Shown: positions 375 through 43,080 of the stretch, piece by piece
How positions within the stretch are numbered: position 1 is the stretch's first letter
How the letters are laid out: each line of letters begins with the position of its first letter
Assembly (NCBI GenBank): GCA_040754495.1
Contig: JBFMCO010000022.1
Span: 18,233 to 82,232, forward strand
Length of the DNA stretch: 64,000 nt
Direction: 5' to 3'
Source of the DNA: Candidatus Micrarchaeota archaeon
Lineage (GTDB): Archaea > Micrarchaeota > Micrarchaeia > Anstonellales > Bilamarchaeaceae
Notes under the pieces: generated by a model
Databases searched by the model: none
What the model was told of the DNA's origin: nothing
Seen by the model: the letters and a program-made list of their open reading frames with translations, nothing else
Made by a program: the position numbers and the translations under genes

Positions 375-540
375 GGGCCCATAGCTCAGCTTGGTAGGGG
401 GGCCGCTCTTATTATAAGAGAGGCCTCGCCGTAAGCGACGGACTCTTATCTTTTGGAAAGGCACTTACAGCCCGTTTTGGGCCGCCTTTTCCCAAAAGGC
501 GGAAATCCGTGTGTCGAGGGTTCAAATCCCTCTGGGCCCG
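375..540 (+). tRNA. tRNA-Lys(CUU) with two introns, one in the D-loop region and one at the canonical 37/38 site
   Basis: The acceptor is GGGCCCA/UGGGCCC with discriminator G. The T-arm is GAGGG-UUCAAAU-CCCUC. The anticodon stem ACGGA/UCCGU flanks the loop CUCUUA|intron|A. The 5' GGGCCCAUAGCUCAG and 3' GGUUCAAAUCCC..GGGCCCG match the archaeal tRNA-Lys pattern. The mature RNA needs removal of about 35 nt after GCUCAGCUUGGUAG and about 55 nt after position 37. Confidence 0.6.
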
Positions 541-541
541 T

Positions 542-564
542 CCCCTTTTTTAGTAAAAAAGGGG
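542..564. terminator. Perfect inverted repeat CCCCTTTTTT-agt-AAAAAAGGGG immediately 3' of tRNA-Lys; a hairpin or oligo-T terminator, or a recombination-site candidate
   Basis: Read directly: 10-nt arms with a 3-nt loop, T-rich on the tRNA strand. Confidence 0.4.
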
Positions 565-576
565 CCAAAAAACTAA

Positions 577-1545
577 TTGTTTGTCAACCCCCCGTGGTTA
601 CCATTTATCCAAAAAATCCAGCGGATTAAAAACGCGATTAGCGATAAAATATTCATGTCACAGCCCCTGCAGAAGCCCGCGCAAGAGCACCAGCGCCTCC
701 AGACCACTCCCCGCATCCGCAGGCCTCCTTTCGTGATGTGCAGGGACATCGAGCAGGTGAGGGAGGTGCTGAGGATTTACGGCGCGATGGAGATGCACCT
801 GATGATGTCCGGAATCCTGGAGAACAGGAAGGAGATCGGGAGCCTCATGTATGCTTATGACGAGACTTCGAGGCAGGCGCTCGCGCGCGCCCCGCCGATG
901 GTGGTGAGGGTCCCGCAGGGCCTTCTGGACCAGCTTGCGATAGCCGGGGGCGCGAGCGGTGCCTACGTCCCGGGGACCAATATCGTCCTCGTGTCATCGT
1001 CGCCGGCCCGTTTCCCGGACGGGACGCCGCAGAGGGTGGAGGACATAATAACCCACGAGACTCTCCACTATCTCGACTATCTCCTTCATGCCAATCGCAT
1101 GGCCTTCAGGAGCCGGGGGCGGCTTGTGAATCCGGAGCCGCCGAGATTCTTCGACGAGGGAGCGACCAACTATGCTGCCCTCCAGGTCGTCAGCGGGATG
1201 CATCTGCCCGGAAACCGGGAAGCACCTGCCAACTACGCATATCCGACGGCAGTGATGGTGGCAATCGAGATGCTCGCAGGCATCGAAAGGCTGGCTCCGG
1301 CCATGCAGAGCGGCAACTGGGAGCATGTGCAGCAGGCAATCGACCAGAAGCTCGGCCAGGGCAGCTTCGAGCGGATACTGGATTGCGGCAACGGCGCGGA
1401 AGCCATCGGGCTCATACTGGAACTGGATAACGGCCAGCCCCCCTTTATAGACAGGCAGCTTCTCGAGCGGCATCCGGTCATGAGGAGGGCGAGGCGCGGA
1501 ATCGAGGCCATGAGGCCGCCGTCCATGGCGGGCCAGGAGATATGA
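577..1545 (+). CDS. Hypothetical protein with an HExxH motif (ITHETLHYLD); putative zincin-like metallopeptidase
   Basis: 322-aa ORF. It has a lone HExxH followed by LD, the same local pattern as the C-terminal segment of the giant ORF. The start could instead be at the internal Met (MSQPLQ, about 655). Confidence 0.5.
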   Translation: MFVNPPWLPFIQKIQRIKNAISDKIFMSQPLQKPAQEHQRLQTTPRIRRPPFVMCRDIEQVREVLRIYGAMEMHLMMSGILENRKEIGSLMYAYDETSRQALARAPPMVVRVPQGLLDQLAIAGGASGAYVPGTNIVLVSSSPARFPDGTPQRVEDIITHETLHYLDYLLHANRMAFRSRGRLVNPEPPRFFDEGATNYAALQVVSGMHLPGNREAPANYAYPTAVMVAIEMLAGIERLAPAMQSGNWEHVQQAIDQKLGQGSFERILDCGNGAEAIGLILELDNGQPPFIDRQLLERHPVMRRARRGIEAMRPPSMAGQEI

Positions 1546-1616
1546 ATCGACCGGCGGTTCGCTAGCCATAAAAAGCGTCTCCTGCATATCCATTCGCCGC
1601 TCCGGGTGCGAACTAC

Positions 1617-1946
1617 ATGGCGAAGGAAAAAATCGACTGGTCACAGCCCCCCAACCCGTCACTGCCGTTTATCAGCCCGGAGAACATAGGCGAGGTCGAG
1701 AAGGAGGCGCTGGCGATGGCCAACAAGGCTATTTCTCTCCTTGAGCAGGCGATAGCAGCCTGGGACAACGCTAAGGACAAGCCGCCTGAGCTGAAAGGGA
1801 CGATTCAGAGGTACAGGCGGTTCCACGAGGCGCTGAGCGACTGGGAGAAAAGGATGCTGCAGTCCCTGGGGAAGGCGGATTTCAATGCCCGGGTGAGGAT
1901 GCTCGAGGAGTTCGTGAGGATAAGCAGGGCATACGAGGGTAACTGA
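1617..1946 (+). CDS. Small hypothetical protein (109 aa) translationally coupled to the giant ORF
   Basis: Its stop TGA overlaps the ATG of the giant ORF by 1 nt (..AACTGATGG..). Same strand, no gap. Confidence 0.5.
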   Translation: MAKEKIDWSQPPNPSLPFISPENIGEVEKEALAMANKAISLLEQAIAAWDNAKDKPPELKGTIQRYRRFHEALSDWEKRMLQSLGKADFNARVRMLEEFVRISRAYEGN

Positions 1947-41690: not shown

Positions 41691-41730
41691 AGGGATATAT
41701 GTTCTACCATTTATTTAAAAAGGCTTCCGC

Positions 41731-42687
41731 TCAGGAGGGTTTCTTGAAGCAGAGGCAGCGCATCTCGCCCCAGTAATCCGGAGGCAGGCCCGGGCCGCGG
41801 AGCACCTCGGCCAGGCGGACCACTTCCACCCGCGTCTCGGCCGCGGCCTGCATGTCGGTCTCGGCCACCCGGGCTATCCACTTGTCCCTCACCCAGCCGG
41901 AAACATCCTCGCTCATGTCGAGCGGGCGGCTTATGAATGCCAGGAGCTTGGCGCCTTCGGAGCCGACGACGCCGTAGGGAAGGGGCAGCCATGGGTAGAC
42001 GTCCATAATTATGAACCGCCCGCCGTCCCTCAGGAGGTCGAACGCATTCGTCATCACGGCCCCCCTGCTCGCCAGCGTCTGGAAAGAGCCCCACCAGAGG
42101 ACTATGTCGAACATGGCCGGCTTCACCACCGGGCTTTCCCGGACGAGGCCCTCCATGGAGAGGTCGATTGACGCCATCGTGACGGCCTTCCCGTCCGGCC
42201 TGATGAACTCCGCCAGGTTCGACCTCGCTATTAGGTTCAGCTCGGGCGACACCTCGTTGGCGAATACGCGCAGGCCCGAGTTAGCGGTGTGGAGGAGATA
42301 GCGCGACACCATCCCGGTGCCGCAGGTGGCATCAAGGATGAGTTTCGCGTGGTTGATGTCAGGCACGAGGGACCGGAGCTTCATCCAGTTGACCGCGATA
42401 GCGGTATACTGGCCCGTCAAATCCATGAAGACGTCGAGGGAGCTCCCGCCGCCCTCGTGCGGGCGGGCCAGATACCCGCCCGTGGTAACCCGGACGGCCC
42501 CGAAGCCTCTTTCGCGCAGGACTTCATCTTCGTGCTGGCTTCCGTTTCCGAAAAGCGCGGGTGATTCTTCCACAAGCGGGGCAGCGCCGCCGCCTGCGCG
42601 GCGCAGGCCGGAGATGGGGACGCTCCGCTCGCCCTGGACTACGAACACGCGCTGGGGCTTCCTGAAACGTTCCGGCATATCACCCAC
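41731..42687 (-). CDS. Class I SAM-dependent methyltransferase, adjacent to the previous one
   Basis: LDATCGTGMVS motif I. Confidence 0.6.
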   Translation of the reverse strand: MGDMPERFRKPQRVFVVQGERSVPISGLRRAGGGAAPLVEESPALFGNGSQHEDEVLRERGFGAVRVTTGGYLARPHEGGGSSLDVFMDLTGQYTAIAVNWMKLRSLVPDINHAKLILDATCGTGMVSRYLLHTANSGLRVFANEVSPELNLIARSNLAEFIRPDGKAVTMASIDLSMEGLVRESPVVKPAMFDIVLWWGSFQTLASRGAVMTNAFDLLRDGGRFIIMDVYPWLPLPYGVVGSEGAKLLAFISRPLDMSEDVSGWVRDKWIARVAETDMQAAAETRVEVVRLAEVLRGPGLPPDYWGEMRCLCFKKPS

Positions 42688-42816
42688 TCGGGACTTTATT
42701 AGACTGGAAAGGTATTTAAGTTATTATATATGTCGCGTCTTGGATAATAACGCGTTGCACCCGGAAAACAGAACTCGGGCCCGGGGCACTGAACCGGAAA
42801 CCGGCTGCCGGGGGCT

Positions 42817-42853
42817 GGATGCAGGAAAAAAATAGCGGGGGGTAGATTTGAAC
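42817..42853. repeat. 37-bp direct repeat, copy 1: a partial duplicate of the initiator-tRNA 3' end plus its oligo-T flank
   Basis: ggatgcaggaaaaaaatagcggggggtagatttgaac is identical to 42960..42996. Confidence 0.8.
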
Positions 42854-42959
42854 CCCCAGCCTTTTTATAATCGGAATCCTGGCCCCGGAGAAAAAGGCTA
42901 GGGTTAACCCAAAAACCAGTTTCTCGGAACCCTGAACCCGAAACGGGAAACCGGAAACA

Positions 42960-42996
42960 GGATGCAGGAAAAAAATAGCGGGGGGTAGATTTGAAC
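42960..42996. repeat. 37-bp direct repeat, copy 2; it overlaps the 3' end of the initiator tRNA gene
   Basis: Identical 37-mer. Sequence after the repeat differs between the copies. Confidence 0.8.
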
Positions 42997-43080
42997 TACC
43001 GGTCCCTGGGTTATGAGCCCAGTGGGAACTCCAAGCTTCCCATAGGGCAAATTCTAGATGTTAGAATTTGTTACCCCGCT
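42976..43080 (-). tRNA. Initiator tRNA-Met(CAU) with a ~30-nt intron near the D-arm
   Basis: Minus strand: AGCGGGG..CCCCGCU-A gives an A1:U72 pair. Anticodon stem CUGGG/CCCAG has three G:C pairs next to the loop CUCAUAA. T-arm GGUAG-UUCAAAU-CUACC. AGCGGGG and CCCGCUA match archaeal tRNAi. 105 nt versus about 75 mature. Followed by TTTTTTT. Confidence 0.65.

Follow-up and report, generated by a model that had tools for sequence, protein, structure and literature searches.

Four tRNA genes carrying seven introns of predicted bulge-helix-bulge type in a 64-kb stretch of Micrarchaeota DNA

Overview

The stretch of archaeal DNA considered here, 64,000 nucleotides (nt) of contig JBFMCO010000022.1 and in what follows called the window, contains four genuine tRNA genes that together carry seven introns. 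They specify tRNA-Lys(CUU), an elongator tRNA-Met(CAU) (eMet), tRNA-Ala(UGC) and an initiator tRNA-Met(CAU) (iMet). The best explanation, to which we assign a probability of roughly 0.9, is that all four are functional tRNA genes from a member of the Micrarchaeota and that the inserts are introns of the bulge-helix-bulge (BHB) type. The geometry of the junctions supports the view that the inserts behave as archaeal introns of this kind, and we infer that all seven are actually spliced.

Identity of the four genes

A first-pass annotation, made from the letters alone, had picked out four tRNA loci of 105–215 nt and held that none of them would fold unless one or two inserts were taken out. The coordinates and lengths were confirmed (Table 1), and clean cloverleaves were indeed obtained only after excision. 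In all four loci the acceptor, D, anticodon and T elements can be read in their correct order with the inserts lying between them, and after removal of the seven inserts ARAGORN folded Lys(CUU), Met(CAU), Ala(UGC) and iMet(CAU) into standard cloverleaves with the expected identity elements. The spliced Lys, eMet and Ala products measure 74, 74 and 72 nt, respectively. The tRNA-Lys gene specifies discriminator G73, has no encoded CCA and is followed by a T-run; tRNA-Ala possesses G3:U70; and spliced iMet displays A1:U72 and, in its anticodon stem, three G-C pairs (G29-31:C39-41).

The exons are closely related to those of orthologous Micrarchaeota loci (designated here by L numbers), with identities of 64–75/75 for iMet, 66–72/72 for Ala, 68–74/74 for eMet and 64–72/74 for Lys. 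Spliced iMet is identical at 75 of 75 positions to the intron-less gene of L002, which scores 57.6 bits with the Rfam tRNA model. The eMet range refers to five orthologues, and that of Ala narrows to 69–72/72 if L002 (66/72) is set aside. Intron-less orthologues in general score 57–65 bits, among them the Ala(UGC) genes of L007 and L008 (63.2 and 65.0 bits). For Lys the orthologues are L051, which has both introns, and L053, which has that at 37/38 only (Rfam tRNA scores 42 and 55.6 bits). Compensatory changes were found in the Ala stems, the pair 27:43 being U-A or, in L007, C-G, and 7:66 being A-U or, in L008, G-C. Since the exons match the intron-less genes of L007 and L008, both Ala introns could be placed exactly, and five of the seven junction pairs are set independently by intron-less orthologues.

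With respect to the sites of insertion, position 37/38 in Lys, eMet and Ala, the D-arm in Lys and Ala, and the T-loop in eMet were as first annotated. Only iMet differs: it has a single intron at 9/10, and none in the D-loop or at 37/38.

Geometry of the splice junctions

In the scan for BHB motifs the 5' bulge was taken to comprise the final two nucleotides of the exon and the first of the intron, the central helix (H) the four preceding exon nucleotides paired with intron positions -6 to -3, and the 3' bulge the final two nucleotides of the intron and the first of the 3' exon; this core has an outer helix (h) on one side and an inner helix (h') on the other. Each junction was given a P value, that is, the share of 100,000 length-matched random junctions with a score as good or better.

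All seven junctions outscored the random ones (P from 1e-5 to 8.5e-3), and each carries the motif, in strict or relaxed form, that the first-pass annotation had proposed to look for. The central helix is complete (4/4) at five junctions and has three of four pairs at two. Both eMet junctions are strict hBHBh' motifs; those at 37/38 in Lys and Ala are near-strict; and the remaining three (Lys 22/23, the Ala D-loop and iMet 9/10) are of the HBh' class, which has no outer helix. When the genes were scanned without bias, the required junctions came out first or near first in each. Under strict criteria the two best motifs of the eMet locus fall exactly at 37/38 and 59/60; with one central-helix mismatch allowed, the top motifs in Lys and Ala are the 37/38 introns, and Lys 398–433 and iMet 43071–43042 also score well.

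Folded alone, five of the seven introns adopt one unpaired nucleotide, a closed helix and six unpaired nucleotides, as the BHB model predicts. Both the Lys 22/23 intron (z = -2.9) and the iMet 9/10 intron (z = -8.75) have this form. The z-scores of the isolated introns extend from about -1.5, for the two introns with the hairpin core described below, down to the value for iMet, that of the eMet 59/60 intron being -3.8.

Other placements of the Ala D-loop junction were considered. A junction at 38015–38070, giving AGCAUAGCA, and a deletion that retains CUGGAAGCA and so keeps GG were ruled out because the intron-less genes of L007 and L008 read AGCAGCA or AGUAGCA. The equivalent slide 38013–38070 forms no BHB (H1) and was rejected.

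Based upon this geometry each gene would be transcribed as a precursor of 105–215 nt, there being a T-run after each. At every junction four exon nucleotides would pair with intron positions -6 to -3, which would give a central helix of 4 bp between two 3-nt bulges holding the splice sites, and the body of the intron would close the inner helix. A protein splicing endonuclease would presumably cut both bulges and an RtcB-type ligase join the exons.

Several points weigh against this interpretation. The motif at the Ala D-loop junction is weak (H4 h0 h'3, P = 0.0085), the 37/38 junctions of Lys and Ala each have a mismatch in the central helix, and no EndA or RtcB domain was found with Pfam among about 40 open reading frames (ORFs) of the 64-kb window. 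Furthermore, a tRNA-Ala that lacks G18G19 and has G55 would by itself hint at a pseudogene, but this variant is kept in seven orthologues with compensatory stem changes. If the four loci were tRNA pseudogenes, inactivated by insertions of small repeats or of elements like miniature inverted-repeat transposable elements and left unspliced, one would understand why standard tools do not call them, why two inserts hold a hairpin element that is repeated at many loci and why the D- and T-loops of tRNA-Ala are non-canonical. One would not expect exons under strong purifying selection, those of iMet being identical to an intron-less orthologue throughout, nor the compensatory changes in Ala, nor BHB geometry around each insert. 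Intron-bearing alleles persist in several species (L003, L004, L051), a small genome cannot do without its initiator tRNA, and copies of the hairpin element from metagenomes lie in or at tRNA genes in 53 of 55 cases instead of being scattered. We consider it very improbable that these are pseudogenes, and treat them as functional, intron-bearing tRNA genes in what follows.

Table 1. Positions of the tRNA genes, their introns and other features of the window
Feature	Position	Strand	Length (nt)	Site, parts or content	BHB class, helices and P
tRNA-Lys(CUU) gene	375–540	+	166	exons 375–397, 434–448, 505–540	
Lys intron 1	398–433	+	36	22/23 (3' strand of D-stem)	relaxed HBh'; H4 h1 h'6; 1.9e-4
Lys intron 2	449–504	+	56	37/38	near-strict; H3 h5 h'7; 5e-5; top-ranked BHB of the gene
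Elongator tRNA-Met(CAU) gene	36746–36960	+	215	exons 36746–36783, 36844–36865, 36947–36960	
eMet intron 1	36784–36843	+	60	37/38	strict hBHBh'; H4 h5 h'2; 1e-5
eMet intron 1, guide-like CCGAUGAGU	36792–36800	+			
eMet intron 1, D'-like AUGA	36802–36805	+			
eMet intron 1, hairpin	36806–36816	+			
eMet intron 1, C'-like GAUGA	36817–36821	+			
eMet intron 2	36866–36946	+	81	59/60, inside T-loop	strict hBHBh'; H4 h5 h'4; 2e-5; best strict BHB of the gene
tRNA-Ala(UGC) gene	37997–38165	+	169	exons 37997–38013, 38072–38090, 38130–38165	
Ala intron 1	38014–38071	+	58	D-loop (about 17/18; between 4th and 5th nt of 7-nt loop)	relaxed HBh'; H4 h0 h'3; 8.5e-3
Ala intron 2	38091–38129	+	39	37/38	near-strict; H3 h5 h'6; 2e-5; top-ranked BHB of the gene
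Initiator tRNA-Met(CAU) gene	42976–43080	-	105	exons 43080–43072, 43041–42976	
iMet intron	43042–43071	-	30	9/10 (between acceptor and D stems)	relaxed HBh', 9-bp inner helix; H4 h1 h'9; 2.4e-4
Hairpin in Lys 3' trailer	541–573	+			
Repeat of iMet 3' end, first copy	42996–42960	-	37		
Spacer between copies	42959–42854	-	106		
Repeat of iMet 3' end, second copy	42853–42817	-	37		
Probable box C/D small RNA	39585–39638	+		C AUGAUGA, D' CUGA, C' UGAUGA, D CUGA	
Giant ORF	1946–22471	+		6,841 codons	
PolD large subunit DP2 (DNA polymerase II)	31778–36658	-		intein at residues about 935–1372	
AlaX-like protein	43813–44586	-			

Lineage and splicing endonuclease

The AlaX-like protein retrieved 53 loci, and the closest 14 (58–70% identity) are from metagenome-assembled genomes (MAGs) of Candidatus Micrarchaeota; loci from Bathyarchaeia reach at most 54%. 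Identity between the tRNA exons of the window and those in Micrarchaeota MAGs reaches 100%. The order iMet/Ala/eMet is common to L002–L004 and L007–L009, and several loci keep the arrangement AlaX - iMet - Ala - eMet. The window is about 60% G+C and encodes a PolD DP2 with an intein, cysteinyl-tRNA synthetase (CysRS) and a 6,841-codon ORF. Judged by these relationships the source is a Micrarchaeote and not a crenarchaeon of the Thermoproteales. A host of the latter type, in which the introns would be cut by an endonuclease of the heterotetrameric (alpha-beta)2 form, would look alike in that several non-canonical introns occur per tRNA, G+C stands at about 60% and the sequence is purine-skewed, and it is there that, according to the citation in PMC4090602, intron transposition was first described (Fujishima 2010). 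It is hardly credible here, as the best protein and tRNA matches are to Micrarchaeota MAGs, the tRNA-Ala elbow variant and the synteny are common to Micrarchaeota loci only, and PolD DP2 is encoded in the window. Crenarchaeota are not known to have PolD.

Among the other genes of the window, that for DP2 is split by an intein with a LAGLIDADG domain. The giant ORF takes up a third of the window, is strongly purine-skewed and presumably specifies a giant DPANN surface protein. In exact-protein look-ups the Lrp protein of the window matched the MAG GCA_964540525.1, and the AlaX-like protein had no entry.

Three junctions without an outer helix and two with a mismatch in the central helix require an enzyme that tolerates relaxed motifs. 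According to PMC3239211 and PMC5829648 only broad-specificity endonucleases cleave relaxed HBh' motifs. The first-pass annotation had placed these genes in a lineage with such an enzyme, which is supported by the three HBh' junctions and by the published epsilon2 endonuclease of the host phylum. With no EndA domain found by Pfam in about 40 ORFs of the window, the enzyme type is judged from the lineage, and on that basis it is probably an epsilon2-type EndA. In ARMAN-2 (Candidatus Micrarchaeum acidiphilum) a three-unit epsilon2 EndA is described as cutting strict as well as relaxed BHB motifs in vitro (PMC3239211), and 56% of the tRNA genes are given there as disrupted, at varied positions which include 59/60 and in one case with two introns in a single T-loop. 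An epsilon2 EndA with its specificity loop also occurs in Mancarchaeum, and the type is documented only for ARMAN-1/-2 and Mancarchaeum (PMC5829648).

It is unlikely, though far from negligible, that the same splicing is carried out by another loop-bearing EndA or, more broadly, by a type other than epsilon2, be it alpha4 with the DPANN "L3" loop or (alpha-beta)2. Members of the DPANN carry alpha4, (alpha-beta)2 and epsilon2 enzymes, and loop-bearing EndAs in this group, alpha4 included, correlate with disrupted tRNA genes (PMC5829648, PMC12397907). The narrow documented range of epsilon2 would fit with such an alternative, as would the distance of our AlaX-like protein from sampled Micrarchaeota (only 58–70% identity). 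Against it stand the two Micrarchaeota whose EndA has been examined, both of which carry epsilon2 with the specificity loop (PMC3239211, PMC5829648), and the intron positions seen here (59/60, D-arm), which match the reports for ARMAN-2. An epsilon2-type EndA is therefore the enzyme we favor.

The phenomenon as such is already published for Micrarchaeota, a lineage that the first-pass annotation had not recognised, and these genes add a further case of a known type. ARMAN-2 with its disrupted tRNA genes and epsilon2 EndA (PMC3239211, PMC3488258) belongs to the same phylum; strict hBHBh' and relaxed motifs occur in both, and in both the genes are missed by standard predictors. The window differs in representing another Micrarchaeota lineage of higher G+C content, and no endonuclease gene was seen in it. 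The iMet 9/10, Lys 22/23 and Ala D-loop sites are not described in the accessible text of PMC3239211 and PMC3488258.

Detection by standard tools and completeness of the tRNA set

That standard annotation easily misses such genes had been claimed from the start, and default ARAGORN, ARAGORN -i and Rfam did all miss or mis-model the four. The sole call of default ARAGORN on the window is a spurious tRNA-Gly(CCC) at 461–540. ARAGORN -i, which searches for introns in the anticodon loop, gave two wrong single-intron models, Leu-UAA (374–543) and Val-AAC (37996–38166). At the gathering threshold the only tRNA match of Rfam is to iMet (model positions 10–63, 43041–42984, 30.0 bits with a cut-off of 29); relaxation to E<=10 across the window added no tRNA match. 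Maximisation of the ARAGORN score over all pairs of deletions favors wrong anticodons (e.g. CUA), and such scores were used only in combination with BHB scoring and orthologues.

No fifth tRNA gene was found in the window by a scan for T-arm plus acceptor strand, by ARAGORN at low threshold or by inspection of all intergenic gaps. The first of these recovered Lys, Ala and iMet plus one chance match within the giant ORF; eMet escaped it because its T-loop is split by an intron. The low-scoring ARAGORN matches are inside ORFs, and the intergenic gaps hold small ORFs or nothing resembling a tRNA. The sole further tRNA-like sequence is a 37-nt copy of the iMet 3' end. The gap at 45835–45960 gave no significant sign of a structured RNA (z = -1.5).

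Turnover of introns among orthologues

The introns are evolutionarily labile, and their presence, position and sequence vary between orthologous genes of related MAGs. Across 12 orthologues iMet has zero, one or two introns at four sites. It is intron-less in L001, L002, L006, L011 and L014. The 9/10 intron of the window has a homolog at the same site in L004, which carries an anticodon-arm intron in addition; L003, L007 and L009 also have an intron in the anticodon arm, L008 has one there and another in the T-loop (iMet gene at 11329–11471, +), and L012 has one in the D-loop.

The Ala gene has from zero to three introns across orthologues. That at 37/38 has a homolog in L003 and is absent from L007, L008 and L009. 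The maximum was observed in L004, where introns in the D-loop, at 37/38 and in the T-loop bring the gene to 271 nt (11128–11398, -). The T-loop intron of eMet occurs in three of six orthologues, being absent from L004, L007 and L008, and the introns which L002 and L003 have at 59/60 are unrelated to that of the window. The Lys 22/23 intron is found in two of three orthologues (present in L051, absent from L053).

A family of hairpin introns

The Lys 37/38 and Ala D-loop introns (at 471–504 and 38038–38071, respectively) share a hairpin core of ~32 nt that lies antisense to the tRNA and, as its reverse complement, reads TTCCGCCTTTT-NNN-AAAAGGCGGCCCAAAAC. By sequence both are copies of a family of mobile hairpin introns of ~50 nt, the mode of whose mobility we infer.

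With an nhmmer profile of the core, E values of 2.7e-9 (Lys 37/38) and 8.4e-8 (Ala D-loop) were obtained. Homologous introns are present in L051 and L053 for Lys and in L003 and L004 for Ala. In the opposite orientation the core occurs in introns of the Ala D-loop (L002, L009), the Ala T-loop (L004) and the eMet T-loop (L002, L003). Over 781 kb the profile matched only 11 introns in seven genomes, at the Lys 37/38, Ala D-loop, Ala T-loop and eMet T-loop sites (E from 2.7e-9 to 9.4e-5), and no significant copy elsewhere in those 781 kb. The likeness continues past the palindromic hairpin (e.g. ...CCCAAAACGGGCTGTAAG... versus ...CCCAAAACGGGTCGTTAA...), and the hairpin loops are mutually reverse-complementary (CCC or CCT versus GGG or AGG), so that these are true inversions and not the outcome of convergence. 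A hairpin in the 3' trailer of tRNA-Lys, CCCCTTTTTT-AGT-AAAAAAGGGG followed by CCAAAAAAC, resembles the core as well; it is the next nhmmer match and is not significant (E = 1.6).

An exact-pattern scan of metagenome contigs yielded 55 further copies (L054–L108). Inspection, together with ARAGORN runs following BHB-constrained deletion, placed 53 of them in or at the edge of tRNA genes. The host genes cover at least 10 isotypes (Gly-GCC, Gly-UCC, Asp, Asn, Val, Ser, Ala, iMet, Lys, Arg, Pro and Glu), with insertions at 37/38, in D-loops and in T-loops. Both orientations are represented, L054, L061, L092, L100, L084 and L077 being clearly sense and L062, L087 and L069 clearly antisense. The terminus TTCCGCC always lies at a splice site, the 5' site if the copy is sense and the 3' site (...GGCGGAA|) if it is antisense.

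In the Ala D-loop copy of the window both strands of the hairpin are changed (CCAGC...GCUGG), so that its CUGGAA end pairs with exon UCAG and the hairpin is kept. This double change with preserved pairing points to selection on the hairpin as well as on the central BHB helix.

We put forward, tentatively and at a little below even odds, that the TTCCGCC-hairpin intron is a mobile element specialised on Micrarchaeota-like tRNA genes, whose insertion takes place at the level of DNA, in one orientation or the other, with 37/38, D-loops and T-loops as its sites. The occurrence of both orientations argues for a step at the DNA level, and the fact that the copies sit almost only in tRNA genes favors targeting over random insertion followed by selection. 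The element would be tolerated because both of its strands can fold into an inner helix and part of the BHB comes from one of its ends, which is UUCCGCC where it meets the 5' splice site and GGCGGAA where it meets the 3' splice site. The handful of nucleotides nearest the junction would then co-evolve with the host exon, the CCAGC/GCUGG stem of the Ala D-loop being an example.

Intron transposition has been described for Thermoproteales by Fujishima 2010, as summarised in PMC4090602. The present family differs in its phylum, which belongs to the DPANN, in its defined core, in its presence in both orientations and in the TTCCGCC end at the splice site; the summary in PMC4090602 makes no mention of orientation flips. 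A literature search, in which the 2010 Thermoproteales work was covered through that summary, found no account of a comparable family from DPANN or with both orientations.

The 37/38 intron of elongator tRNA-Met

An intron is present at 37/38 in nine of nine orthologous eMet genes, and eight share CC-GAUGAGU-N-(A/U)(U/G)GA-(hairpin)-GAUGA. The orthologues with this module are L002, L003, L004, L007, L008, L060 and L078. Hairpin stems among them include GGUC/GACC, GGG/CCC, GGUCCGC/GCGGGCC, GGCCC/GGGCC, GGA/UCC and GGAU/AUCC, and the third base pair may be U-A, G-C, U-G, C-G or A-U. As the stem pairs vary while pairing is maintained, the hairpin is supported by covariation. The arrangement "UGA-stem / stem-GAU-GA" is by its makeup a K-turn, equal to a D'-like plus a C'-like box.

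The guide-like sequence CCGAUGAGU would pair with A31–A37 and the first two intron nucleotides, GG, in a short duplex of 8 bp plus one mismatch. In L002 it is replaced by GUAUGAGU, where both partners are changed and a 7-bp hairpin is formed. C34 lies opposite the fifth nucleotide upstream of the AUGA box in the orthologues compared, this re-shaped L002 variant among them.

In archaeal elongator tRNA-Met a box C/D ribonucleoprotein (RNP) carries out the 2'-O-methylation of C34, and Haloferax uses a trans-acting guide, sR-tMet, on the intron-containing precursor (Joardar 2011, as cited in PMC6601510). The tRNA-Trp intron is the known example of a cis C/D guide in Euryarchaeota (as cited in PMC4090602). 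The eMet intron recalls these guides (Clouet d'Orval 2001, Singh 2004, Joardar 2011; as cited in PMC4090602 and PMC6601510) in its conserved K-turn and in a 9-nt element upstream of it that would set C34 opposite the fifth nucleotide upstream of the D'-like box. It differs from them in having no convincing terminal C/D pair common to all orthologues, and it would act in cis like the tRNA-Trp intron and not in trans like sR-tMet. We propose, at somewhat less than even odds, that the intron is a half-mer cis guide for 2'-O-methylation of C34 (Cm34).

We do not class the intron as a box C/D RNA. L002 and L004 lack the terminal D box, a "GUGAUGA" C box is present in two of eight orthologues, and only the internal K-turn is conserved; the Rfam C/D models scored far below threshold on the intron, the best being sR12 (15.1 bits, cut-off 38) and SNORD41 (15.5 bits, cut-off 41). 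The second (D) guide would make only 5–6 bp with G22–G26 of the tRNA and is not a credible methylation guide.

A probable stand-alone archaeal box C/D small RNA was observed elsewhere in the window (Table 1). It has a terminal GGU/ACC stem and 28.8 bits on snoPyro_CD (cut-off 45), and suggests that the organism has C/D machinery.

The elbow of tRNA-Ala

The locus had been called "Ala-like"; that it is a tRNA locus stands, and it proves to be a true tRNA-Ala, with unusual D- and T-loops that the lineage has conserved. The mature D-loop is AGCAGCA (or AGUAGCA), of 7 nt and without G18G19, and the T-loop is UGCGAGU with G55 in place of U55, in all seven Micrarchaeota orthologues (the window, L002, L003, L004, L007, L008 and L009). 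Since the intron-less genes of L007 and L008 share them, these loops belong to the mature tRNA. One might speculate that a G18-C56 / C19-G55 mini-helix replaces the usual elbow contacts.

Repeats near the tRNA genes

The 37-nt sequence GTTCAAATCTACCCCCCGCTATTTTTTTCCTGCATCC, consisting of the iMet 3' end and its trailer, is repeated exactly downstream of the gene. The spacer between the copies has a GGGTTAACCC palindrome and a AGCCTTTTT...AAAAAGGCT hairpin. Identity to L001 (11448–11600) is 86% over the spacer and second copy, against 69% for AlaX, and the unit is absent from the other orthologous loci. This difference suggests that the unit is under constraint and is not a decaying integration scar; it might be a regulatory leader or a small RNA. 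Duplication of tRNA fragments through integrating elements is known from Caldiarchaeum (PMC3293823), and the iMet direct repeat likewise adjoins an intact gene; it differs in its spacer of only 106 nt and in having no integrase.

Most of the Ala 37/38 intron is made up of a heptamer, (GAAACNG)n, found by Tandem Repeats Finder with period 7 at 38099–38129. It is also seen in the 3' flank of iMet (42935–42971, on the other strand), in that of eMet (36972–36983) and in an intergenic spacer (31739–31750). With one mismatch allowed there are nine matches to GAAACNGGAAAC versus 0.9 expected, and the Ala 37/38 intron of L003 has the same periodicity.

Implications

With default settings, tRNA finders would show almost no tRNA genes in these 64 kb and would score the genome as being without initiator, Met, Ala and Lys tRNAs, which bears on completeness estimates and on claims of "missing tRNA" for DPANN. 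The locus is a well-resolved example, outside the acid-mine ARMAN strains, of disruption of tRNA genes co-evolving with what is probably a broad-specificity endonuclease. If the proposal for the hairpin family is true, it would extend intron transposition from Thermoproteales to DPANN and provide the first sequence-defined, orientation-independent family of BHB introns. Together with this family, the series of orthologues with zero to three introns per gene offers a tractable system in which one might learn how BHB introns are gained, why tRNA genes are targeted and whether the route is through DNA or RNA.

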